Shown: positions 1 through 13,041, counted from the first letter of the stretch. The stretch: DNA of 64,000 nt from Longimicrobiales bacterium (GCA_965248195.1 CBDFIQ010000001.1:864001-928000); one strand, 5' to 3'. Translations and numbers: made by a program. The notes: a model not told the origin generated them from the letters alone.

Positions 1-435
1 GAACTCGGCCATGAGGTCGGCGAGCTCGTGGTGCACCTCCAGCGAGCCGCTGAGGATCGGGGATCCCGAGGCACCGTTCCCGTACCGGTGCACAGACTCG
101 ATCACGGCCCCCTTGACCTCGGGGCGGTAGGACAGCCCGAGGTAGTTGTAGGAGGCGAAATTCAAGAGGTCGCCGTGGACCTTGCCCGTCTTGGTGTTAC
201 GGATGTCGACTCGCGTCGTGGGCGAACCCTGCATGGGAAGCCCGTACAAGTAGTAACCGGACGGTTTGGAGTCCTTCCACCACTCGTCGAAGGGTTCGAG
301 CATGCCAAAGGCATCGTTCCCGGCCCCGAAGTAGAAGTTCGTGTAGTCGTACTGCATGGCGAGCGGGAGTTGCTTGCCGGACTTGTCGTTGAACATGCCG
401 GCCTGGCTCGTACCATCCGCTGTTTTCTCGCCCAT
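1..435 (-). CDS. PLP-dependent alpha-oxoamine synthase family protein (BioF/Kbl/serine palmitoyltransferase-like), runs off the left edge
   Basis: Not in the ORF track; translated by hand: MGEKTADG...LLNFASYNYLGLSYRPEVKGAVIESVHRYGNGASGSPILSGSLEVHHEL. The F-x-S-x-N-Y-L-G-L and G-A-S-G-S-x-x-L-x-G motifs are typical of the AOS family. GGAGG RBS upstream of the ATG at 435. Confidence 0.85.
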   Translation of the reverse strand, partial: MGEKTADGTSQAGMFNDKSGKQLPLAMQYDYTNFYFGAGNDAFGMLEPFDEWWKDSKPSGYYLYGLPMQGSPTTRVDIRNTKTGKVHGDLLNFASYNYLGLSYRPEVKGAVIESVHRYGNGASGSPILSGSLEVHHELADLMAEF

Positions 436-697
436 CGAGCCCTCCATCCAAGATACCTTTAGGTCCAGCCCCAAGTGTACGTGTCGTCCACCCTGGTCCC
501 AAGAACGATCACGGGTCGGAGCCGGGCGCCAGGGGGGCAAACCCTGAAGCTAAAAGAACGGGTGATCAGGTCCAGGCGTCGTAGGACCCGGGTGCGTCCA
601 CCACGTAGGGTCCCCCCGAGGCAACGCTCCATCGCGACACACGATCGAGGAACGGCCTGACACCCTGGGGGAAAGGTGCCGGTCCGTCCCCAAGAAG

Positions 698-770
698 CTC
701 CCGCGGCTGGACTCGAACCAGCGACAAGACGGTTAACAGCCGTCTGCTCTACCAACTGAGCTACGCGGGA
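698..770 (-). tRNA. tRNA-Asn (anticodon GTT), CCA not encoded
   Basis: Reverse complement TCCCGCGTAGCTCAGTTGGTAGAGCAGACGGCTGTTAACCGTCTTGTCGCTGGTTCGAGTCCAGCCGCGGGAG: 7-bp acceptor stem, D-loop, CTGTTAA anticodon loop, GGTTCGAGTCC T-arm. Confidence 0.97.
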
Positions 771-1605
771 TCGGATTCTTACCAGATGAATGTAGACTGA
801 GGTACTCTACTTCTGAGCCGGAGGGTGTCAAGGACTTCGCCGGCCAAGTAGGAAGTCTCAAAGTGACCTGCTACCCCGGGGGCCGCGAAGGGGCCGGCAG
901 AAGGATGTGCCCGGCCAACCGCGCCGGGATTCTACCGTACGATCAGATAGACGAGCGACGCCCCGGTGAAGAGGACGGTGAGTGCATTCCCCCAGATGCT
1001 GATTTGCTCTCGGAGTTGGGAGCTTTCGGCCCTGGGCACGTAAAGCCAGTCCCCCGACTGGATCTGCAGGCCAAGGATCTCCGGGCGTATTTCGAGCGGA
1101 CGCAAGTCGAGCACCGTGCCCACGCCGTTACGGACGAGGCGAACCTGGCTGGCATCGGATGCTCCGCCTGAAAGGCCCAAGTCGATCTCGGACGTCACGC
1201 CGCCGGCCAGGGCCAAGGCGTCGACCAACGTCGCCGAAGGCGGGACGAAGAACTGGCCCGGAATTCGGACCGCGCCCGTAATGTTCACGTTGACGTTGGT
1301 GACGACTTCGATGACCGGATCCGAATAGAGTGCGCCGTAGCGCTCCTCCAAGAGCCTCCGGATGTCGGCGGTCTCCATCCCGACCACGTGGACCGTCCCG
1401 AGAAAGGGCAGAAAGAGCTCACCGTTGGGGTCGACGGTGCGCTCACGGGAGACCTCGGCGAGTCTCGCTCCCGCCGACGTGTAGAAGGCGATGTTCACCT
1501 GGTCGCCCGGCTGCACCCCCGTCCGCGTCAACCCCTCTCTGCCAACGTACGTGAGACACGGAGCACGCAAAGAATTAGAGTAGGGCGAAGGCAGAGAAAA
1601 CGAAC

Positions 1606-2055
1606 ATGTTGGGACTGCGAGAGAGAATGGAAGAGAATGGTAGTGCCCCTGGAATCGGGGAGGCCAAGCGAAGCGCGGCAGCTCCTGCGGACCCGGAGGT
1701 AGTAGATAGGCCGCTACGCCGGCGGTTCAGTCCATCGTACAAGCTGCGGATCGTCGAAGAAGCGGACCGGTGCACCGAGCCCGGCGAGGTGGGTCAGCTC
1801 CTGCGGCGCGAGGGCCTGTACTCGTCGCACCTGACGACGTGGCGCAAGGCGGCGCATAGCGGGTCGCTGAAGGCCCTGTCGAAGAAACGCGGCCGCAAGC
1901 CGGAGCGGAATCCGCTGGATGAGAAGGTACGCAAGCTGGAGCGGCAAAACGCACGGCTCGAGAATGAGCTCAGGAAGGCACACCTGATCATCGACGTGCA
2001 GGGAAAAGTTGCGGGGCTGCTGGGGATAAGCCTCGACGACGGGACGAACTCTTGA
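1606..2055 (+). CDS. IS3 transposase OrfA (HTH); exact start uncertain
   Basis: RRRFSPSYKLRIVEEADRC...LLRREGLYSSHLTTWRK HTH followed by a coiled-coil/leucine-zipper segment. Confidence 0.9.
   Translation: MLGLRERMEENGSAPGIGEAKRSAAAPADPEVVDRPLRRRFSPSYKLRIVEEADRCTEPGEVGQLLRREGLYSSHLTTWRKAAHSGSLKALSKKRGRKPERNPLDEKVRKLERQNARLENELRKAHLIIDVQGKVAGLLGISLDDGTNS
2001..2007 (+). promoter_or_regulatory. Putative -1 programmed frameshift site G GGA AAA fusing OrfA to OrfB
   Basis: X XXY YYZ heptamer in the orfA frame (cag gga aaa). The -1 frame is open from here into orfB. Confidence 0.7.
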
Positions 2056-3059
2056 AGGCGGCCGATGAGCTGGCTAAGCACGTCGGTGTAAAACCGGCGT
2101 GCGCGGCTCTCGAGGTCTCCCGATCGACGTTCTACCGTCGTCGAGGCCCATCGACCGGGCAACGGCAGCCCCGCCCGACGCCCGCCCGGGCATTGAGCGA
2201 GACGGAACGAGGCGAGGTCTTCGACACGCTGTGTTCGGAGCGGTTCGTGGACCGCTCACCCGCCGAGGTGGTGGCCACGCTGCTCGACGAAGAGGTCTAC
2301 CTGTGCAGCGAACGCACGATGTATCGTGTTCTGGCCTCCGAGGTGCCGGTTCAGGAACGCCGGGCGCAGCGCACCCATCCCGAGTACAAGAAGCCCGAGT
2401 TGATGGCCACGGCGCCGAACCAGGTGTGGTCCTGGGATATCACGCGGCTACTCGGGCCGAAGAAGTGGAGCTATTACTACCTCTACGTCATCATGGACAT
2501 CTACAGCCGCTACGTCGTGGGCTGGATGGTGGCGGACCGGGAGAACTCGGCCCTGGCCGGCCGGTTGATCCAGCAGAGCTGCCTGAAGCATGGCGTCCAG
2601 CCCCGGGTCCTGACCCTGCACTCGGATCGGGGAGCTCCAATGACGAGCCAATGCACCGCTCAACTTCTCGCTGACCTCGGCGTGACTCGCTCGTTGAGCC
2701 GGCCTCAGGTGTCGGATGACAACCCGTTTTCCGAGGCTCAGTTCAAAACCTTGAAGTACCATCCCTCGTTTCCCGGGCGGTTCGGGGATCAGGGCCAGGC
2801 CAAGACGTTGTGTCGATCGTTCTTCCGCTGGTACAATGCCGAGCACCGCCATGGCGGTATCTCGATGCTAACCCCCGAGCAGGTCCACTTCGGGAACGCC
2901 GATCAGGTCATTGCCGGCAGGAAATCCGTGCTCCGCGAAGCATGGGCCGCTCATCCCGAACGCTTCGTCACAGGTGTGCCGAAGCCCAAACCGCTCCCGG
3001 AGGCCGTCTACATCAATCCTCCCATCCCTTCCCTCACCACACAGGATATTGCTCTCTAA
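2052..3059 (+). CDS. IS3 transposase OrfB (DDE integrase core)
   Basis: PNQVWSWDIT, DIYSRYVVGW, LHSDRG and DNPFSEAQFKTLKY motifs. Confidence 0.95.
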   Translation: MKAADELAKHVGVKPACAALEVSRSTFYRRRGPSTGQRQPRPTPARALSETERGEVFDTLCSERFVDRSPAEVVATLLDEEVYLCSERTMYRVLASEVPVQERRAQRTHPEYKKPELMATAPNQVWSWDITRLLGPKKWSYYYLYVIMDIYSRYVVGWMVADRENSALAGRLIQQSCLKHGVQPRVLTLHSDRGAPMTSQCTAQLLADLGVTRSLSRPQVSDDNPFSEAQFKTLKYHPSFPGRFGDQGQAKTLCRSFFRWYNAEHRHGGISMLTPEQVHFGNADQVIAGRKSVLREAWAAHPERFVTGVPKPKPLPEAVYINPPIPSLTTQDIAL

Positions 3060-3689
3060 TTAATCCCGTAGAGTGTCCCATTGTCGTTGACAGGTTCCGA
3101 ACTGGGGGAGCTCCATACGCAGGATCGAGCCGCTCGAGGCGCAGGCGCCGAGGAGAAGGGAGAGCACGAAGACGAGTGCGGCCGCACCGCCGGATTTCAC
3201 CATGGGTTCGGGATCCTGTTGAGTTGAGCTTCGATGGGTTCACCTGTATCTTCTAGTCTATACAAACGCCTGATCCTGTGTCCAGATTGACGGATGGCGC
3301 AGCTCGCGAGAATCGAACTCCATCTGTTTCCTTTTTTGGGTTATCTTCTCAGGTCGAATCCCTCAAACATCTTAGAGCAGTGACGGCTCTTTTTGGCGTC
3401 AAATGTTCCCACAAAAATTGAAGAGCTTGACAGGCGCACCCTTTGGCCTTCATATGAGGAGCCTCAATTGCCCCCCCCCTCGGAACTAGAGCGGGCGCAC
3501 GGAGGGACTTGCGCCCACGAAAATTTTCGACTCGGAAGAGATGAGCGGGAGAACCTACGCAGAGGAGGCTGTGGTTGCGCCGGCCGTGAATGCCGGACCG
3601 ACGAACGGTGGAGTGGGGCCAACTTCGAGTGGCCGAACTGGTCGTTGCTCGGAGCTGCCTCTCAAGTCGTTCCTCGAACCAACAACCTA

Positions 3690-4310
3690 GTGGACGCAGA
3701 ACTTACCCCCGAATCTAAGTGGAATATCGAGAGCGCCGAGGCGCTTCTCAACTCACTTAAGGGCGTGGTGTCGGCGCGAGTCGTGGCTCGCCCCGGTGGA
3801 ATTATAGAGGAGATCCACCTCCTCACGGAGGGGGATGTGTCGGCGAAACAGTCGGTCCGAAACGTCGAGTCGGTGCTGCTGGCTCACTTCGGTCTGAAGA
3901 TCGACCACCGAAAGGTGTCGGTCGCTCAGAAGGACGATGAGCAGGGTGACGCGGTGAAGGCTTTCGCTTTCGGAAGCGGGAGTGGAGAGGGCCGGTTCCT
4001 CTTCGTGACCCACCGCGTCGAGACGGAGAAGGCGCACCGAGTGCGGATCGCCGTCACCGTGGAGTGGGACGGCGAGCAGTATGAGGGCGAAGCGAGTGGG
4101 TCGGCGAGGGTGCCCTAACGTTGTCAGTAGATGGAGTGAAAGTGGTCGAGGCGTTCGACGGTCAGTTCGTCTTGGTTGCCATACATGCGATTCACGGACG
4201 GTCGAATCACGGCCCTCGCGGGGGCTGCGGCCGTAGAAGACACAGCCGATAGGGCTGTCATATTGGGGACGCTACAAGCCGCGGACCGTTGGGTCCGAGG
4301 CAGAATTTGA
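3690..4310 (+). pseudogene. Conserved hypothetical (IEEIH..KQ.VR.VES..IDHRKVSVAQ family), C-terminal part frameshifted/partly deleted
   Basis: The ORF stops at 4118 (GSARVP*), but coding-like sequence continues in shifted frames: TLSVDGVKVVEAFDGQFVLVAIHAIHGR, then ITALAGAAAVEDTADRAVILGTLQAADRWVRGRI* (TGA 4308-4310). The GTG start at 3690 is tentative. Confidence 0.65.
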
Positions 4311-4444
4311 GCGGAGACCCGCAGGAACAACTTTAAATCAGGGAGAACCCCTCGACCGGCCAAGAGCGAAGCGGAGAGCGAGCGAAGCGATAGCAGCTTC
4401 TTGAGCGGTAGAAGCTGACACCTACGAATAAGGAGGTGCAGCTT

Positions 4445-4507
4445 ATGTTTAGCTCTCTATTTCATTTTTTAGGAGCATTGCTCTTCAGAGGTATTTTGGG
4501 CCTGTAG
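4445..4507 (+). CDS. 20-aa hydrophobic peptide MFSSLFHFLGALLFRGILGL (putative signalling peptide)
   Basis: Perfect SD TAAGGAGGTG at 4429-4438, 6 nt before the ATG; TAG at 4505-4507; 28 nt upstream of the HD-GYP gene. Too short for the ORF track. Confidence 0.75.
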   Translation: MFSSLFHFLGALLFRGILGL

Positions 4508-4535
4508 ACCGGCCTGTCGAGGGGGACTTTCTCGA

Positions 4536-5924
4536 ATGCAGATCACCTCGCTTAGGATGTATGTTGGGATCGTCACGGCGCTCGCCGTGGGGTCCCTTTT
4601 CTTGCTGGATTGGGAGATGCTCGACTCCCTACCAGCGGAGTCCTGGCAGGGCCTGTTGTCTCTCGTCATACTGGGTCTCGTCTCAGAAAGCCTTTCCATT
4701 AAGGTCAAGCTCGGAGGAAACTCAGGCAGTTCGTCGATCACGTTCTTACCCCTGCTTACGTGCGTCCTGCTCTTCGGGCCGGTTCCCACGGTAATGCTCC
4801 ATGCGGCCACTGGTACTTTTGGTGAACTCATCGTTCGCCGAAGCGAGCCGATCAAAGCGATCTTCAATATCAGTCAGTATCTGCTTTGTACGGTGGTGGC
4901 GGGCTTCGTGTTTGAAGCCCTTGGCGGTGTTCCGCAAGCAGCAGTCACCACCCCGTTCGCGATTCAGGGCGTTCAACTTGTCGGGTTCGGGCTGGTTTTC
5001 CTCACGGTCAATCAGGCCGCTGTGTCCATCGCCATTGCGATCATCGAAAGCATGCCTTACCGGAAGGTATTGGCCCTTATTATAGGCCGCTCAGGTGCGA
5101 ATCTGGGTTACGATCTTCTCATAAGTCCGTTCTCGCTCGGAATGGCGTTTCTTTATTTGGAGTGGGGCATTGCTGGCTTCCTTTTTGTCATTCTCCCCCT
5201 CTTGTTCATTCGAACAGCCTACCTCAGGGCGTTTCAGCTTCAAGAGGTGAGCGCCAATCTCTTGAAGGCGCTTGTCAAGGCCATCGATGTGCGGGATCCG
5301 TACACGTCTGGCCATTCGCAACGGGTGTCGATGTTATCTCGTCGGATTGCCGAAGCGATGGGGCTCTCGACCACACAGGCCAAGTACGTCGAGACGGCAG
5401 CGCTGCTTCATGATATTGGAAAGATCGACGAAATCTATTTGGAAATCCTTCAGAAGCAGGGGCCACTCAATATGCTCGAGCGGAGGGTTATCCAATCTCA
5501 TGTAACCACCGGGGTGGAGTTACTCGAGTCACTTTCATCCTACCCTGAAGCGGTGCTCGGTGCGGTTCGACACCATCATGAGCGCGTGGATGGCGGAGGA
5601 TATCCCGACGGACTGGTCGGAAACGAGATCCCTATCGGCGCTCGAATTATCAAGGTGGCGGATGCGGTAGATGCGATGCTGTCCGACCGACCCTATCGAA
5701 AAGCGCTTTCAGTGCCCGTGGTTCGGGAAGAATTACTCGAGTTCTGCGGTACGCAGTTTGATCCCGGGGTGGTACATGCGATTCTGAAATCCTCGGTTCT
5801 GAACGACCACGCCGACGAGATCCTGGCAGCTGGGTTGAACTTGCCAGAGACGATCCACGGAAGCTTCTCCACGGGATCTTACCGAATGAGATCCGGGGCA
5901 CCCTGGCGGAGGTTGAAGCGGTAA
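4536..5924 (+). CDS. Membrane-bound HD-GYP c-di-GMP phosphodiesterase with N-terminal multi-TM (MASE-like) sensor
   Basis: About 7 hydrophobic helices in the first ~230 aa. D-x-YT-x-GHS-x-RV, LLHDIGKI, HHERVDGGGYPDGL and DAMLSDRPYRK motifs. Confidence 0.92.
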   Translation: MQITSLRMYVGIVTALAVGSLFLLDWEMLDSLPAESWQGLLSLVILGLVSESLSIKVKLGGNSGSSSITFLPLLTCVLLFGPVPTVMLHAATGTFGELIVRRSEPIKAIFNISQYLLCTVVAGFVFEALGGVPQAAVTTPFAIQGVQLVGFGLVFLTVNQAAVSIAIAIIESMPYRKVLALIIGRSGANLGYDLLISPFSLGMAFLYLEWGIAGFLFVILPLLFIRTAYLRAFQLQEVSANLLKALVKAIDVRDPYTSGHSQRVSMLSRRIAEAMGLSTTQAKYVETAALLHDIGKIDEIYLEILQKQGPLNMLERRVIQSHVTTGVELLESLSSYPEAVLGAVRHHHERVDGGGYPDGLVGNEIPIGARIIKVADAVDAMLSDRPYRKALSVPVVREELLEFCGTQFDPGVVHAILKSSVLNDHADEILAAGLNLPETIHGSFSTGSYRMRSGAPWRRLKR

Positions 5925-5936
5925 GCTGGATGCCGT

Positions 5937-8900
5937 CTACATGAGGGCTTGAATTCTCCTACCCTGATGAGTGAGCCCCAATTGTGTTGCCCTGCTCGAG
6001 ACCTCCTGGGCCAGCCGGGTTGCCGAGGCTGTGTCGGTCGTTCGTAAGAGGCGAATTTCCTCCATTCGAAGCTTGATCCAACTCAAGGGCAACCTTGCTT
6101 CGACTTGTTCAGCAGTCGCGCGCAGGACTCCTAATGCACCCGGCATGTCGCCGTGGCACCGACGAACGCGAGCTCGGAAGGTGACCGGCAATGTTGGATC
6201 AAAGGACCAAATGCTTGGGATTCGCATGAGGTCATTCCTCTTGACGGCCCGCCGTAGGGCGCCCGTGTGAAGTTCACATATTCCCAACCCGGCTTCGGCG
6301 GTGAGGGAGATGTGGGCGGGCAGGGACGCTGGATCCTGACGCATTACGCGCTGAAAACACTCTAGAGCCTTGGAGATCTCTCCCAGCCGCAAGTTGAGTT
6401 CCCCACAATTGACGTCGAGAAGAACATTTTCAGCTTCGGTTTCCCCGCTCTCGACGATTTCTCTCGCTTCACCGAAGGAGACCTCCGCCGCATCGTAGTT
6501 CCCGGAATCCAGGTGCCATACGCCTCGATTATGCCGAAGTAAGAACCGAAGCAGTAGATCGCCCGCCAGCGCCGCCGCCTCCTCCGCGTCGGCAATGAGA
6601 TCCAAGCCTCCGGTGGACGTTATTAGGCCCTGATAATTTAGGACAAAGATCAGCCGATTTAGTGCGATGGGTCTCTCACGGACGAAGTCGTGAGCCTCAG
6701 CCAACTGGACTGCCTTGCGAGCACTGGCGAGGGCCAGCTCGGGTACGCCGTAAAGTTGGTGTAACGTCAACACGCAATGAGCCCTGCATCGTGCCCGGGG
6801 GGTGCCGACTCTGCTCAACGCATCGGCCTCGTCGAGCTTCGTTCGAATCGCCAGGGCGTCGTCTTTCCGTTCCAATGCAAGGACTTCAATGTCTAAGGCC
6901 TTGGCATATGCCTCAGATTCCCCCTCGGCGCTGAGGGTTGATTCCATCTCGTGTAGCCTGGCCAAGAGGTCGGGAGTCAAGGCTGGATTGAGGCACAGCA
7001 GGCAATCCATTTGCTCGAGCTCGGCCTCCCAGGCCTTACTGGCGTGGCCGGCCGCTCTCAGGCCTTCACAAGCGAGCGCAAGAATGGGAGCCGCTGTAGC
7101 CAAGTCTTGGCGGAGGTAATGGAGGTGGCCCAACCTCCAGAGGATCTCACTCGCCAACGCCCCGTCCGCTTCGTTCCGCCGGGCGATGGACAGGTGAATG
7201 ATGGCCTCAGGAAAGGCGCCAGATTGCTCCGCGAAGCCAGCGGCGAGCAGCGAGTATTTGACGGCCTCTGGCGCGATACCGGCTCTGTCGAGGTGCATCG
7301 CCAGGGTTCCCCAATTGGCTTCGTCGTCCGCTCCAAGAGATTGGGCCACCCGTTCGTGCAGCATCCGCCGGCGCGCCGGGCCAAGAGAATCATACACGGC
7401 CCTGCGAACGAGCGGATGCCCGATACGACACCCTGCTTCGTCTTCGACCACTAGGCGGGAACGCAGCAGCTCCTCGCTGGCTTCAACGAGAATCGCCGGC
7501 GCTTTTTTAAGCATCTTGGCCGCTTCGGCAAGAGCCTGTGTCTGTCCAGACACGGCGAGCACTGCAAGAAGACCTCGAGCCTCAGTGGAAAGCTCCGATA
7601 ATCTGGGCTGAAGGAGATTCTGCACGGACGGAGGAATCGCGGGCTCGTTGGGCTCGGCCGTGAAGTCCATCCTTCCTGCGCTGGCTTCGGCCGCCAGCTC
7701 GGTGAGATAGAAGGCGTTTCCGGCGCCCAACGCACAGATCGACTCGAGTGTCCGGGATGGCAAGCCTCCTTGCGTGAGGTGGTCTACGATCGCCGCCGCA
7801 GCTGTTGGATCGAGTTCTTCCACGGCCAGGTGCTCGTAGTCCCCGTTGATAGAGGTCAGAAACTCCTGCACGCAAGCGCGCTTCTGGATCAACTCGGTGG
7901 TCAACACCAGGACAATTGTTAGATCGCCCTTGGCCCTTCGCCTCACAAACTGAATGACCGAGAGTGTGGTCTCGTCCATCCAGTGTACATCGTCGAGAAA
8001 TAGCGTGAGGGGCTGACGCCCCGAGAGATGTTCGAACAGAAGAAGAAAGGCCTCCATCAGGCGCCGTGACACATTCAACGGTCCGAGGGGAGGCGGCAGG
8101 GTTTTCTCCGGTGCTCCCTGGGCTCTCGGCATGAGGCCTCTCAACACCGTTACCCACGGCTCACCCAGCACAGAAAGATCTTCTTCTGACAACTGCTGTA
8201 GCACATCGATGATTGGGTTAAGGGGAATGCAGTCCTCGAACTCAGCTCCCCGGGCCCGGAGGGTCCGCACTCCGTCCAGGCGAATCCGCCTCATCGCCTC
8301 CTCGATAATCCTGGTCTTCCCAATTCCAGCTTCTCCCATCACGACGATGAGTTGTGGCTTCGTTTTTGGTGTGGTCAGCCGCGTTTGAAGAAACTTCAGC
8401 TCCGGTCGTCGACCAACCAGGGGAGTACTGCTGACGGCGACATCAGTGTTTCGTCCCGAAGGGCCGCACTCTTTGGCTTTATGGCACAGCTCGGAGGTCG
8501 CTCGCTCTGGGAGCCACACCTTCCCGTAGGCCCTTTCCCACCGTGCCGCGAAATCCGAAACTGTTTCGGGGACCTGGTCAGCATCATCGACCATGACGAG
8601 TTGGCGTATGGAACGCTGCAAAAAACCCTCCTTCGGAGGGCAGGCCTTGACCGCCACGGATAAGAGGGCGCCCAGGTCGGCCCACCTCGCCTCCGATTCA
8701 GCCCTCGCACACGCTCTCAATAGGGCTTCCGCGAAGAGTTCCTCACTCCGTCGGGCCAATGATTCACGCCAGCTCTCGAATGCGACTGTCGGGGCATTTT
8801 CGATGCGTGAGAGAAAGTCGGTCACACGGAGCGCATCGAATTCGTGAAAATCCTGGTGTTTGACCGATTGCAGGACTCGCGTCAGGTCGCACCACCGAGC

Positions 8901-9007
8901 GGCGAGGTCGCTCAGTAAGAATCCTCCGTCGCCCCGCATGATCTGCCGACCGCATTTGTTCTTGACTCCAAGCAACAGCTGGCTCAACCGATGACGCTGG
9001 GGAGCCC
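5937..9007 (-). pseudogene. BTAD/SARP-like - STAND (AAA_16) ATPase - TPR regulator, N-terminus removed by IS256
   Basis: LVGRRPEL, Walker A GEAGIGKT, Walker B LFLDDVHWMD, TPR-like C-terminus. The frame stays open to the IS edge (APQRHRLSQLL), resembling the 'RHxLSQxL' helix of SARP-type wHTH domains; no native start or RBS. Confidence 0.75.
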
Positions 9008-10383
9008 GGTAGTGTCCCTAGATTTGTGTAAAAGCGGATAAGCTGGACAGGAGGGAAAGAAAAACGGAAGCTCCTCTGTTGTTGTTCACTGTCACATGAA
9101 CCCGGGAGTCCGGGTCTGCAGAGCAGGCTCGGAACCGGAGAGGAGCTTCCGATGCAAGAGATTGTGGAGATCGGTCGGGCCACGCAAGACGAGCTACGCG
9201 ATGATTTGCGCGAGCTGTTTCAAGGCGCGATCCGGCTGACGCTCGAGATGGTGCTGGAAGAGGAGCTGAAGGCCATGGTAGGTGCACGCCGCTTCGAGCG
9301 GGTGGGAAGCCGGAAGGACCATAGGAACGGCACATACCTGAGGCGGCTGCTGACGAGCCTGGGGCAGATCGAGGTCGCCATGCCCCGGAGCCGGGACAAC
9401 GGTTCGCCGGCCGACGTGATCGGCCGCTACCAGCGCAGGAGCCCCGAGCTCGACGAGATGATGGTCGAGGCGTATGTGAGCGGCGTGTCACAGCGCAAGA
9501 TGGGCGACGTCACCGAGGCGCTGATGGGCGAGCGTGTTGGGCGCTCGACGGTGAGTCGTGTGGCAAAACGGCTCGACGAGGCCGTGGAAGGGCTGCGCCG
9601 TGCGCCGATCGAGGGGCCTCACCCCTATCTGTACCTGGACGCCACGTTCTTGGACGCCCGCTGGGCCCGCAAAGTCGAGAACGTGAGTGCGCTCGTGGCG
9701 TATGCAGTGGGCCCTGAGGGTCACCGACGGCTCCTGGCCGTCACGCTGGGCGCTGAGGAGTCGCAGCAGAGCTGGTCGGAGCTCCTCGAGCAACTCCAGG
9801 ACCGCGGCCTCGGCGGTGTCGAGCTCGTGATCGCCGATGAGCACGCAGGCCTGGCAGCTGCGGTCCGCCGCTTCCTGCCCGAGGCACGCCGTCAGAGGTG
9901 TACGGTCCATCTGCAGCGTAATGTGGGGGCGAGGGTCCCCCACCGCTTACGCAAGCGCGTGGCGCGTGAGGTCTCGGTGATCTTCCAGACATCCGGACTC
10001 GCCGAGGCGAAGAAGCTCCTGGGCGAGTTCGGCGCACGCTGGAAGAAGGAGCTGCCCGAGGCCGTGGAGGTCCTGGAGCGGGGCTTCGGGGCAGCGACGC
10101 AGTTCTACGCGTTCCCCGAGGCGCACTGGCCCCGGCTGCGTACCACCAACAGCCTCGAGCGGCTGCACGGCGAGATCAAACGCAGGATCAAGGCCGCCGG
10201 CGCCTTCCCGGACCGGGCCAGCGCCCTCAGGCTCATCACGGCCGTCGCACTCAGGACCACACACGTCTGGGGCGACCGGCGTTACCTCGACCTCTCACTC
10301 CTCCAGAAACAGGAGGTCGCCCAAGCAGCCTAGCCGAAGGCGAGGAGCTTCCTCCGCTTTTACACACAAATCGGGACTTGACC
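9008..10383 (+). mobile_element. IS256-family insertion sequence, ~31-bp imperfect IRs, no target duplication
   Basis: GGTAGTGTCCCTAGATTTGTGTAAAAGCGGA versus reverse complement GGTCAAGTCCCGATTTGTGTGTAAAAGCGGA. Flanks GGGAGCCC and ATCTCGAA differ. Confidence 0.9.
9152..10333 (+). CDS. IS256-family (Mutator) transposase
   Basis: RNGTYLR, YVSGVSQRK, YLYLDAT, QRCTVHLQRN and RTTNSLERLHGEIKRR motifs; GAGGAG RBS. Confidence 0.96.
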   Translation: MQEIVEIGRATQDELRDDLRELFQGAIRLTLEMVLEEELKAMVGARRFERVGSRKDHRNGTYLRRLLTSLGQIEVAMPRSRDNGSPADVIGRYQRRSPELDEMMVEAYVSGVSQRKMGDVTEALMGERVGRSTVSRVAKRLDEAVEGLRRAPIEGPHPYLYLDATFLDARWARKVENVSALVAYAVGPEGHRRLLAVTLGAEESQQSWSELLEQLQDRGLGGVELVIADEHAGLAAAVRRFLPEARRQRCTVHLQRNVGARVPHRLRKRVAREVSVIFQTSGLAEAKKLLGEFGARWKKELPEAVEVLERGFGAATQFYAFPEAHWPRLRTTNSLERLHGEIKRRIKAAGAFPDRASALRLITAVALRTTHVWGDRRYLDLSLLQKQEVAQAA

Positions 10384-10676
10384 ATCTCGAACTGGCATGG
10401 GTGTTCAACAACTTCCTGTTCCACCGGGACCAACGCTGCTGGGTCGTTCAGCTCGAGCCGGCGGAGCGTACCGCCCTCGAGGACCGATTCAACGACGTGC
10501 TCCGCGTACACGCCGACTTCGTCGGGGTCTGGAGCCAAGTGGACTTCAACGAAGGCATGCTCCCTTTCAAGGAGCTGCTCAACATCACTACGTACCCGGG
10601 TGGCCCCCAGCTCTGCTACACAAAGGGGACCGACGTGAGGGTTCCTGCCACGACCCCAAGTACTATGAATAGGTGA
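10384..10676 (+). pseudogene. 3' fragment of an unknown gene truncated at the IS256 right end
   Basis: The frame is open from the IS edge (LELAWVFNNFLFHRDQRCWVVQ...), with GC-rich third codon positions and no RBS or start of its own. Confidence 0.5.
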
Positions 10677-10741
10677 TCTATCCGGTGTGGGACCGACGTG
10701 CAGTAACTAGCGGCGTGGACGGCGAGTCTGGCGGTAACCCG

Positions 10742-11902
10742 TTAGGAGGCACACGAACTAGCGTCGACGATCTCTTGCCGCACCCAACCGTTCTTCTCCC
10801 GTTGCGAAAATTCCAGGAGTGACGCGCGGGCCTCCCTGGTGCCGACCCGACCCAGTGCCCACACCGCATGCCCGCGCACCAGTACCTCCCCATCCGCGAG
10901 AGCCCGGACAAGAACCGGCACCGCCTCCGGTGCCCCCCAGTTGCCGAGCGCTACACAGACGTTGCGCAGCAGCCCGGCCCGCTTGGCTCGGGTGATGGCC
11001 GAGTCTCGGAACACCTCACGAAACTCTTGCTGGTCTAGGCTCAACAGCTTTTCGGCCAGCTCCACAAGCGACGGCCCGTCCAGCCCCTCTCTCGCCCGGT
11101 AGGCCTCATCTTCTGCTGGCCGAGCAAACCGCTCGTTCCACGGGCAAACCTCCTGACAGATGTCACATCCGTACACTCGGTTCCCCATGAGCGGCCGGAG
11201 CTCGACGGGTATCGGGCCCCGATGCTCGATGGTCAGGTAGGAGATACACCGTGTGGCGTCCATTACCGGGGCCCCCGACGCATCCCGCCCCAGCAACGCT
11301 CCGGTGGGGCACGCATCCAAACAACTCCGGCACGTCCCGCAGTGGTCCTCCAGGAACGGAGCGTCGGCATCGAGCTCCAGGTCTAGAAGCAGCAACCCCA
11401 GAAAAAAATAGGAACCCTGTTTCGGGTGGATCAGCATCGTGTTCTTCCCGAACCAGCCGACGCCCGCACGCAACGCCATTTCCCGCTCCAGAATGGGGCC
11501 GGTATCCACATAGACGCGTCCCTCGACAGGTCCTTCCACGGATGCGTTAATCCAGCCGTGCAGCTCGAGAAGCCGCTTCTTGATGGTGCCGTGGTAGTCC
11601 TGCCCGCGCGCGTAACGGGCGATCACGCCCCTCGCAGGATCGGCGGGTACGCCGGGGGGGTCCTCCTGGAAGTACTCATGACCGACCACGACCGCCGATC
11701 GAATCGACGGCAAGGTTCGCCGGAGATCACCGCGCCGAGCGACGGCGTCCTCACGGGCGAGATACGCCATCTCCCCGTGCCTGCCGTCCTCCAACCATCG
11801 GCCATAGAGATCCAGATGATCGCTCGGTTCGACCGTGGCGACCCCCACCAAACTGAAGCCCAGCCCTCGGGCCTGCTGCTTGAGGCGGGTAGTCAGCGTC
11901 AC
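10742..11902 (-). CDS. queG: tRNA epoxyqueuosine(34) reductase QueG with C-terminal HEAT repeats
   Basis: ARYARGQDYH, VDTGPILERE, CGTCRSCLDACPT, CISYLTIE and GCDICQEVCPWN motifs. The GTG start overlaps the upstream TGA (GTGA). Confidence 0.95.
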   Translation of the reverse strand: MTLTTRLKQQARGLGFSLVGVATVEPSDHLDLYGRWLEDGRHGEMAYLAREDAVARRGDLRRTLPSIRSAVVVGHEYFQEDPPGVPADPARGVIARYARGQDYHGTIKKRLLELHGWINASVEGPVEGRVYVDTGPILEREMALRAGVGWFGKNTMLIHPKQGSYFFLGLLLLDLELDADAPFLEDHCGTCRSCLDACPTGALLGRDASGAPVMDATRCISYLTIEHRGPIPVELRPLMGNRVYGCDICQEVCPWNERFARPAEDEAYRAREGLDGPSLVELAEKLLSLDQQEFREVFRDSAITRAKRAGLLRNVCVALGNWGAPEAVPVLVRALADGEVLVRGHAVWALGRVGTREARASLLEFSQREKNGWVRQEIVDASSCAS

Positions 11903-13041
11903 ACCCGGTACTCCCTCCCTTTCCACTCGACATGGCCTCCGCGCATCCAACTCCTAAGAAAGATGTAGCTCACCACTCCGGCCGCTAGTGGATAGAACAG
12001 GCTGGTCCAGAGCGGCGCTCGGAGACGCCAACTGGTAAGGCTCCAAATGAGGACGCTGAATCCCGCGATCGAGGCCGACCATATCCGCCAGCTCTCTGGT
12101 CCGACCCCCGCAAGAGACATAAGCAGGATCACGGGAGGAACGATCCAGATCGCCACGCTGACCACGATCGCGGTCGGCATGACGATCGGAGCAGCCCAGC
12201 GTGGAACGGCTTGGCGAGCCCCCAGGGACACGTTCTTCGACCAGCCATCGATCAACTCATCCAGCGACCTGTACATCCGAGTTGCGAACACGGTCTCGCC
12301 ATCGCGGACCACGAGCCGTTTTCCGGATCTACACAGGATCTGCGCCAACCGCTGGTCCTCGACGACCTCCCACTTTACGGCTTCATGGCCTCCGATTTCC
12401 TCGTACGCGCCTCGGTCGAAGAGAATGAACTGCCCGTTGGCGATCGCATTCCGCCAGCGCTCGGGAGGACGGGGTTTCCCGGGGTTCGGAAAGCGAAATA
12501 CGATCGCCGCCATCATGTGGGTCTGAACCAACCGCTCCCAGAACGTGCCCATGAGTTGCCGGCCCAACAACGTGAGGGCATCTCCTTCGTCCTCGACTAT
12601 CTCCGCTACGGCGCGCCCCAGCAAATCGGGGGCGTGAATGGTATCGGCGTCGGTGAATAGCAGCAGATCTCCCTTCGCCGCCCGGGCCCCCTGCGCGCAC
12701 GCCCAGGGTTTGCCCATCCACCCATCGGGGAGATCCTGTCCTTCGACCACCACAATCCTCCGGGCGTGGTTTGGCGGGACCGCCCGCGCCATCTCCAGGG
12801 TGGCATCGTCGCTCCGGTCATCCACGACGAACACCTCGAAGTCCGGATAGTCCGAGGCGCAGATCGACTCGACGCAAGAACGGATGCTTCTCTCTTCGTT
12901 TCGGGCCGGTACGATGATGCTCACAAGCGGAGCCGCCCGATCCGCTACGTCCACCGCCGCTAGCGGAGGTGGAAGCCTGACTTTAATCAGTAGGTAGAGC
13001 GCGAGCGCGATCCAGGGGGCGAATGCGAAAGGAGGTGGCAT
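11899..13041 (-). CDS. Membrane GT2 glycosyltransferase (CrtQ/CruC/HpnB-like)
   Basis: VPARNEE, DDRSDD, GWMGKPWAC, FTDAD, ANGQFILF and VVED motifs; C-terminal TM helices. Confidence 0.88.
   Translation of the reverse strand: MPPPFAFAPWIALALYLLIKVRLPPPLAAVDVADRAAPLVSIIVPARNEERSIRSCVESICASDYPDFEVFVVDDRSDDATLEMARAVPPNHARRIVVVEGQDLPDGWMGKPWACAQGARAAKGDLLLFTDADTIHAPDLLGRAVAEIVEDEGDALTLLGRQLMGTFWERLVQTHMMAAIVFRFPNPGKPRPPERWRNAIANGQFILFDRGAYEEIGGHEAVKWEVVEDQRLAQILCRSGKRLVVRDGETVFATRMYRSLDELIDGWSKNVSLGARQAVPRWAAPIVMPTAIVVSVAIWIVPPVILLMSLAGVGPESWRIWSASIAGFSVLIWSLTSWRLRAPLWTSLFYPLAAGVVSYIFLRSWMRGGHVEWKGREYRV

Follow-up and report, generated by a model that had tools for sequence, protein, structure and literature searches.

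A cross-phylum module of an accessory protein, a structured RNA leader, a micropeptide and a predicted MASE9-HD-GYP phosphodiesterase

Does a short open reading frame ahead of a membrane-bound HD-GYP gene encode a peptide that works with the enzyme, and from which side of the membrane would it do so? The question is raised by a locus in a Longimicrobiales genome (GCA_965248195.1 CBDFIQ010000001.1:864001-928000). We analysed this whole stretch of 64,000 nucleotides, here called the window, and give coordinates from its first letter. A preliminary description had read positions 3690 to 5924 as a peptide-sensing c-di-GMP module comprising a hidden peptide gene, an HD-GYP gene and a conserved hypothetical gene. 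The locus is one instance of a cross-phylum module of four parts: an accessory protein, a structured leader, a micropeptide and a MASE9-HD-GYP protein. Its features and neighbours are as follows:

932..3203, minus strand: Wza-like polysaccharide-export gene, divergent and split by an insertion sequence (IS) (N-terminal piece 3101-3203, IS 1535-3100, C-terminal piece 932-1534); context only
3690..4310, plus strand: accessory gene, broken in the window copy
4348..4361, plus strand: 5′ arm of the long-range helix P1 (11 pairs, 94% of cells paired, 7 pairs with two-sided change)
4365..4390, plus strand: five single-stranded AGCG(A/G) repeats including a tandem AGCGRAGCG core, likely protein-binding sites
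4394..4417, plus strand: hairpin P2 (7 pairs, 6 with two-sided change) with a sixth AGCGG in its loop (4404-4408)
4429..4438, plus strand: Shine-Dalgarno of the small ORF, whose 3′ end can pair weakly with 4419-4422 (helix 3: 4 pairs, 90% paired)
4445..4507, plus strand: 20-codon peptide gene (amphipathic leader, Gly at −5, tail ILGL)
4511..4525, plus strand: 3′ arm of P1, including the HD-GYP Shine-Dalgarno (GAGGGGG, 4519-4525)
4536..5924, plus strand: intact gene for a putative MASE9-HD-GYP c-di-GMP phosphodiesterase of 462 aa (residues 1-237, predicted inverted ECF S-component fold; residues 245-409, HD-GYP)
5937..8987, minus strand: convergent STAND-TPR gene, a neighbour in Gemmatimonadota only

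The outer genes bear on the EPS or biofilm switch that had been proposed. The export gene is divergent, as described, but neither intact nor directly adjacent, being interrupted by an IS of 1.57 kb (1535-3100) to which the genome holds 52 near-full matches. The STAND-TPR gene is indeed convergent, as in 47 of the 48 loci that carry it among 54 from Gemmatimonadota, a diderm phylum, and it is treated here as a neighbour. An export gene neighbours 33 of 73 Gemmatimonadota loci, and neither neighbour has a match in 80 distant metagenome loci. With conservation of both confined to Gemmatimonadota and the export gene interrupted in the window copy, the biofilm switch is unsupported. The window also holds a second transposase-like ORF (9152-10333) and a tRNA gene (698-770, minus strand). 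Just upstream of the module, a 49-codon ORF (3541-3690, plus strand) overlaps with its stop the GTG start of the accessory gene (TAGTG). This overlap is kept in six of six same-genus loci checked, with an ATG-led open frame in five of the six and a similar sequence in two to three of them, and translational coupling is possible.

The small ORF encodes the 20 aa attributed to it and lies 28 nt ahead of the HD-GYP ATG (4536), in agreement with the preliminary description. TAAGGAGGTG sits at 4429-4438, 6 nt ahead of the small-ORF ATG, and was rightly called a strong Shine-Dalgarno: it is the sole such 10-mer in the window and one of three in the genome. Since the 16S tail of the same genome ends CACCTCCTTT, nine of its ten bases pair, and a fully matching AAAGGAGGTG is present in 50 of 72 relatives. 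Of the 161 AAGGAGGT sites in the genome, only this one leads an ORF of 15-30 codons with at least 60% hydrophobic residues, so the small ORF behind its Shine-Dalgarno is not chance. The peptide matches no family in Pfam or NCBIfam.

Comparable small ORFs accompany orthologous HD-GYP genes, as the preliminary description had anticipated. In a MASE9-anchored survey of 70 loci from 156 matching genomes, with best-scoring ones favoured, a small ORF precedes 58 of 60 MASE9-HD-GYP genes across Gemmatimonadota and none of six weak non-HD matches, and the accessory gene lies beside it in 58 of 59 loci; the unpublished genome G212 enters this tally and no other. In the accessory-anchored set, a small ORF with at least two repeats is found in 69 of 70 GTDB loci having at least 330 nt downstream (10 of 80 loci were dropped as too short), the single miss being an apparent IS insertion. 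Distant metagenome loci carry a small ORF in 58 of 66 cases. The Bacillota-type set, from the phylum of G300 (a record titled Bacillota), comprises 70 loci from 137 matching genomes and has a small ORF in 39 of 42 accessory-adjacent loci by script, with two more by eye. The ORF-picking score rewarded repeats in the first three sets; for the Bacillota-type set it ignored repeats and rewarded a Gly-Gly-Ala-like site. Natranaerobius thermophilus has the full set (accessory gene, leader, peptide and MASE9-HD-GYP) plus a DUF5317 gene, and Nonomuraea gerenzanensis has the peptide and MASE9-HD-GYP only. The proposed tie between peptide gene and enzyme therefore holds across phyla.

The pN/pS of the small ORF is 0.30 in frame versus 1.08, 2.60 and 1.64 otherwise, a test that is partly circular because its 25 sequences were chosen by length and first residues. 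Differences between the window copy and its three nearest relatives are mostly synonymous. On this sequence evidence, the small ORF is a real peptide gene, under coding selection and conserved across phyla, and we infer that it is translated. Separately, the second copy (L293) in one Gemmatimonadota genome (G116) encodes a peptide of the signal-peptide-like type, has no accessory gene beside it and may have come from another group. In records titled Bacillota (L046 and L333, G300) and Phycisphaerales (L055, G301), modules of Gemmatimonadota type point to misbinning or transfer.

The preliminary description overlooked a conserved RNA leader in which a covarying long-range helix occurs together with AGCG(A/G)A repeats and a hairpin. 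From the accessory stop to the HD-GYP start, a stretch of 231 nt, the RNA folds with a z of −4.2, and P1 encloses the repeats, the hairpin, the small-ORF ribosome site and the ORF, with that ribosome site outside the P1 pairing. In an alignment of 39 Gemmatimonadota leaders (39 of 53 available plus the window, near-duplicates omitted), 22 pairs are 92.8% paired and 14 of them show two-sided changes, while slid controls bring the paired fraction down to 38-56%. Covariation is 0.358 versus 0.208 shuffled, a value reached by none of 500 shuffles in a test inflated by kin and by deriving the structure from the same sequences. P1 is better than shuffles in 67/70, 41/55, 35/56 and 33/38 loci of the four sets, and the hairpin with the loop repeat beats flank shuffles in 49/54 and 26/36 cores. 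The repeat motif is single-copy in 24 of 61 genomes and has two copies in one, always at the peptide locus where placeable.

The 3′ arm of P1 starts at a median of 5-6 nt past the small-ORF stop codon. In a count that excludes 11 loci with doubtful starts, it covers the HD-GYP Shine-Dalgarno in 54 of 54 Gemmatimonadota loci, holding the downstream site in the helix, and leaves the HD-GYP ribosome site unpaired in 18 of 39 distant loci. Behind P1, 17 of 33 Bacillota-type loci have a T-rich tail (at least 5 T of 8). These two placements would fit a single helix that serves translational control in one phylum and termination in another. Masking a ribosome footprint at the small-ORF stop codon left the unpaired value of the HD-GYP ribosome site at 0.29, as before; a longer mask gave 0.51. 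The Bacillota-type P1 keeps a sequence core, GG(A/C)CCGRC pairing with GTCGG(T/C)CC, which suggests recognition by a protein or RNase besides pairing.

Searches against described RNA elements returned no family for the leader. In Rfam, window positions 1-12000 gave only the tRNA at 698-770 (E up to 1). A CsrA/Rsm leader was rejected: the repeat is AGCG(A/G)A, not ANGGA, and csrA was not found in the genome by a search that matched three controls. As for ANTAR, whose leaders carry two hairpins with hexanucleotide loops, the window leader has one hairpin with a larger loop, and the ANTAR family search matched no control genome.

Relative to its nearest relative, the window's accessory gene has a 79-nt deletion at 4100 and one extra base near 4205, and three in-frame stops lie between the two lesions; the conserved accessory protein described ahead of the peptide gene is thus a conserved family but not intact here. 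Several same-genus copies of the HD-GYP gene (L030, L007, L024 and L005) contain frameshifts or stops, and for all these lesions decay and long-read error are indistinguishable. Intact accessory relatives are about 234 aa long, and their model (pLDDT 85.6) predicts an N-terminal domain of CDF-CTD/BolA-like fold, with conserved Lys, Arg and HRK residues, and a C-terminal domain whose predicted fold matches the LeuA/citramalate-synthase allosteric domain. Leaders are more alike where accessory identity is higher (r 0.51, 45 pairs). In the Bacillota-type set, at least two repeats are present in 36 of 38 accessory-adjacent peptide loci; two peptide loci without an accessory gene have 0 and 1 repeats, and Nonomuraea has 0. 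The pairing of repeats with accessory gene is not strict, since repeats persist in G050 and G060 without an adjacent accessory gene and accessory paralogues at other loci have no repeats downstream, which leaves RNA binding as no more than a lead. The accessory protein is a candidate RNA-binding regulator that probably binds the AGCG(A/G)A repeats. Tandem accessory paralogues, one with the C-terminal domain only and one full-length, occur in G000 (C2:330474-331921, minus strand) without repeats, peptide or HD-GYP, and similar pairs occur in family f3 genomes.

The sensor domain of the enzyme is Pfam MASE9 (PF20972; E 3e-7, 30.8 bits versus a cut-off of 24.3). Its output domain matches HD_5 (E 1e-32) with the HD, HHE, GYP, DxxDAM and RPYR motifs all intact, which at the level of motifs bears out the HD-GYP phosphodiesterase call. 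The membrane sensor domain described earlier stands, but its approximately seven TM helices do not: the model gives eight membrane segments, two of them short, with a short hairpin. Specifically, six helices of the model form a core that is superposable on solved ECF S-components. F70, F110, N111, Q114 and N159 are conserved in MASE9, and E51, F70, N111, Q114, N159 and positions 170 and 179 are predicted to line an inward pocket. Positive-inside counts place the pocket side in the cytoplasm in 76 of 76 sequences, and an outward-facing L1/L3/L5 and cavity was rejected on these counts. MASE9 thus appears, by model and charge counts, to be an inverted ECF S-component fold with its pocket toward the cytoplasm, which argues against AgrD/ComC-style sensing from outside.

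MASE9 occurs in 156 of 251 sampled genomes of the window's phylum and 137 of 301 of a second phylum, and the window genome has 14 matches to GGDEF genes. None of the 16 MASE9-GGDEF paralogues fetched has an adjacent small ORF, so the MASE9 family needs no cis-encoded peptide; these paralogues may answer to a peptide in trans or to other ligands. The opposing enzymes, MASE9-GGDEF and MASE9-HD-GYP, may share one sensor type. Many of the stand-alone MASE9-GGDEF paralogues (L337-L356) lie in genomes that also carry the peptide module.

The peptides are of two types. Gemmatimonadota peptides have an acidic amphipathic leader, then Gly (68 of 72), then a four-residue tail that ends in Trp in 66 of 72 and reads hydrophobic-x-x-Trp in most; a basic N-region is absent (0.03 Lys/Arg in the first 8 residues). 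In the window's clade the tail is ILGL or ILGI, and the window copy has no terminal Trp. At locus L188 the Gly-tail unit is repeated. Distant peptides have a signal-peptide-like leader of 19-22 residues followed by a short aromatic or basic tail, with a basic N-terminus in 48 of 57 and a Gly-Gly-Ala-like (AxA-like) site in 47 of 57. A DUF5317 gene follows the HD-GYP gene, within the fetched span, in 23 of 36 loci with such a site, and is found in none of 61 relatives' genomes of the window's order nor in the window genome. DUF5317, a membrane protein whose invariant residues include Asn and Asp, is encoded directly 3′ of the HD-GYP gene at L134, L142-L146, L151, L157, L161-L165, L178, L184 and L210. 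It is a candidate for processing or partnering peptides of the signal-peptide-like type. Models of agr, ComC and NprX precursors gave no significant match among 31 distant peptides and none for the window peptide, the NprX model giving sub-threshold matches to 2 of the 31 (best E 0.089). At L110, L113, L114, L120 and L122-L131, the MASE9-HD-GYP gene is overlapped at its stop by a second, short HD-GYP gene, whose product has a single N-terminal membrane helix, and these loci carry Pro-rich extended peptide tails.

Peptide and sensor diverge together. Across 45 tree-based pairs, one of them the same genome twice, tail similarity tracks MASE9 identity with HD and accessory identity controlled (r 0.33, p 0.026), but not accessory identity (r −0.04). 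Where HD identity is at least 0.80, MASE9 identities are 0.77-0.89 if the tail is unchanged (9 pairs, duplicate omitted) and 0.32-0.76 if it is changed (13 pairs). In the pherotype-like swap between L055 and L061, the accessory proteins are 93% identical, the tail is changed and MASE9 is 38% identical. The covariation of peptide and TM domain that had been put forward as a check is thus seen for the tail as a whole, but not for single residues: the terminal Trp shows no significant link to MASE9 positions 170 and 179 in 6 independent pairs (median p 0.25, position 170). The peptide leader also tracks MASE9 (r 0.34), and because the peptide and HD-GYP genes are 28 nt apart, simple linkage could account for the co-divergence.

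In our judgement, there is an even chance that the tail is a ligand or partner of MASE9 on the inner side and that expression is coupled by way of P1 and the repeats. The micropeptide would then be made as a functional product, and its C-terminal tail (ILGL here) would bind MASE9; with the predicted pocket opening to the cytoplasm, the tail would act from the inner side and tune c-di-GMP hydrolysis. The peptide may work in an inner-membrane-anchored form or as a cleaved piece, and the direction of its effect on the enzyme is presumptive. A second layer, at the RNA level, would set the amounts of peptide and enzyme: P1, which in Gemmatimonadota lies over the ribosome site of the HD-GYP gene and in Bacillota-type loci often has a U-rich tail behind it, would hold the downstream gene off, and the accessory protein would probably bind the repeats. 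The basis is ORF conservation, coding selection, RNA covariation, gene linkage, predicted folds, charge-based topology and co-divergence. Against it, distant peptides look like signal peptides, which would put the tail outside, opposite the predicted pocket; the peptide leader tracks MASE9 too, the residue-level Trp link is not significant, and MASE9-GGDEF genes lack the small ORF. In addition, repeats persist in G050 and G060, the footprint mask did not open the HD-GYP site, and the window copy has a broken accessory gene and no terminal Trp. It is possible, though doubtful, that the whole circuit holds, with an inverted S-component receptor sensing the tail inside to alter c-di-GMP turnover and a two-domain RNA-binding protein reading the repeats that control P1.

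The small ORF could instead serve the leader alone: its translation would melt P1, freeing the HD-GYP site or preventing termination, the accessory protein and repeats would gate the process, and the peptide would be incidental. The position of the P1 arm on the HD-GYP Shine-Dalgarno in all 54 Gemmatimonadota loci, 5-6 nt past the stop, the covariation beyond all 500 shuffles, the T-rich tails of the 17 Bacillota-type loci and the precedent of mgtQ before mgtB, as given in the passages used of PMC8092293, all favour this. We nevertheless consider it unlikely, given the amino-acid constraint and conserved Gly-tail pattern, a tail that tracks MASE9 and not the accessory protein, and a footprint calculation that left the HD-GYP site closed. 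The peptide is, moreover, kept in three loci where repeats and accessory gene are missing, and in the 18 of 39 where the ribosome site is unpaired.

Other readings give the peptide a fate outside the cell or a target other than the enzyme. A processed, secreted pheromone sensed outside by MASE9, switching EPS or biofilm through c-di-GMP, would suit the leader, AxA-like site and short aromatic tail of the distant peptides, the frequent DUF5317 gene 3′ of the enzyme gene and pherotype-like swaps such as L055/L061. The pocket side is predicted to be cytoplasmic, however, Gemmatimonadota peptides are acidic and amphipathic with few Lys/Arg at the start, DUF5317 is missing from relatives of the window's order, and the export gene is IS-split here, with EPS and STAND neighbours at none of the 80 distant loci. 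No AgrB was found at the locus or in the genome (91.8% complete), in a search in which no control genome matched above the cut-off. We hold this reading to be improbable, and the analogy to AgrD/AgrC or ComC/ComD drawn by the preliminary description is unsupported, given the predicted pocket side and the missing basic N-region of the Gemmatimonadota peptides. An RRNPP-like route, in which the tail is exported, cut, re-imported by a peptide transporter and bound by the inward pocket, would still be cell-to-cell signalling and would reconcile signal-peptide-like distant peptides with an inverted pocket. The NprX match of two distant peptides that points to it is not significant, and the window's order shows neither an export signature nor DUF5317, which makes it likewise improbable. 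Type I toxin mRNAs have a short hydrophobic ORF within an end-paired RNA, and the window has such a layout together with a sigma-70-like site on the minus strand (4520-4493). A toxin-antitoxin-like or antimicrobial membrane peptide, its mRNA closed by 5′-3′ pairing and unrelated to HD-GYP, is nonetheless scarcely credible: the ORF is single-copy and fixed before MASE9-HD-GYP, P1 leaves its own ribosome site uncovered, promoter-like sites number 3 versus 1.1 ± 1.0 by chance, and no Pfam or NCBIfam toxin matches.

For MASE9, an orphan sensor, the module offers a candidate ligand that is cheap to synthesise, the four-residue tail. With this tail, named pocket residues and a cultured host, Natranaerobius thermophilus, the ligand question is testable. 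If the preferred reading of an inward-acting tail is true, peptides feed directly into c-di-GMP control, MASE9 gains its first ligand and the S-component fold works in both membrane orientations. Likewise, a common uncharacterised protein family would be a sequence-specific RNA regulator, giving a new protein/motif pair, and the whole would be a widespread, undescribed signalling circuit.

In agr and ComCDE, a short precursor gene lies beside a polytopic membrane receptor, and tail and receptor diverge together. By analogy, the window module resembles them in a putative precursor gene that adjoins a polytopic receptor-like protein and in a co-diverging tail. Unlike them, the locus has no histidine kinase, thiolactone Cys pattern or ABC peptidase-exporter, its predicted output is c-di-GMP hydrolysis by HD-GYP instead of a histidine kinase with response regulator, and its pocket is predicted to face inward. 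MgrB and SafA are tiny hydrophobic proteins that partner a membrane signalling enzyme, PhoQ; the window module differs in sensor fold and output and in having a cis-encoded precursor, a separable tail and an RNA leader. In the portion of PMC8092293 considered here, mgtQ is a small intergenic ORF between mgtC and mgtB in Salmonella whose RNA structure sequesters the next ribosome site. The window leader shares a small ORF in ribosome-site-sequestering RNA with mgtQ as presented there, and differs in a long-range helix round the whole ORF, the preceding repeats and a constrained tail tracking the downstream protein.

Closest to the enzyme are the MASE9-HD-GYP proteins TM1467 of T. maritima and HdgA of S. 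venezuelae (bioRxiv 10.1101/2021.11.05.467447, PMC6205966), which, according to passages of these papers, have the same domain architecture, are membrane-bound and carry an orphan sensor. The same passages report no developmental phenotype of hdgA mutants, for which the authors proposed a missing activating signal; they name no upstream peptide, RNA leader or accessory gene and state neither an S-component fold nor an inverted orientation. The bioRxiv paper, in whose main text 'peptide' and 'small protein' do not occur, was the sole paper on MASE9 that our literature search found, and the search, which covered main texts of accessible papers, found no description of the module. In the sections used of PMC11109136, 5TMR-LYT receptors and ECF S-components have, like MASE9, a six-helix ligand-binding core as sensor and an extra N-terminal helix; L1 and the cavity of 5TMR-LYT receptors face outside and H6 leads to the cytoplasmic domain. 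MASE9 departs from that account in an additional helix behind H6 and in a reversed charge bias, and its cavity side is therefore predicted to be cytoplasmic. By the features examined, the module belongs to none of the agr, Com, CsrA or Rfam-described systems, and its enzyme is a member of the MASE9-HD-GYP family.
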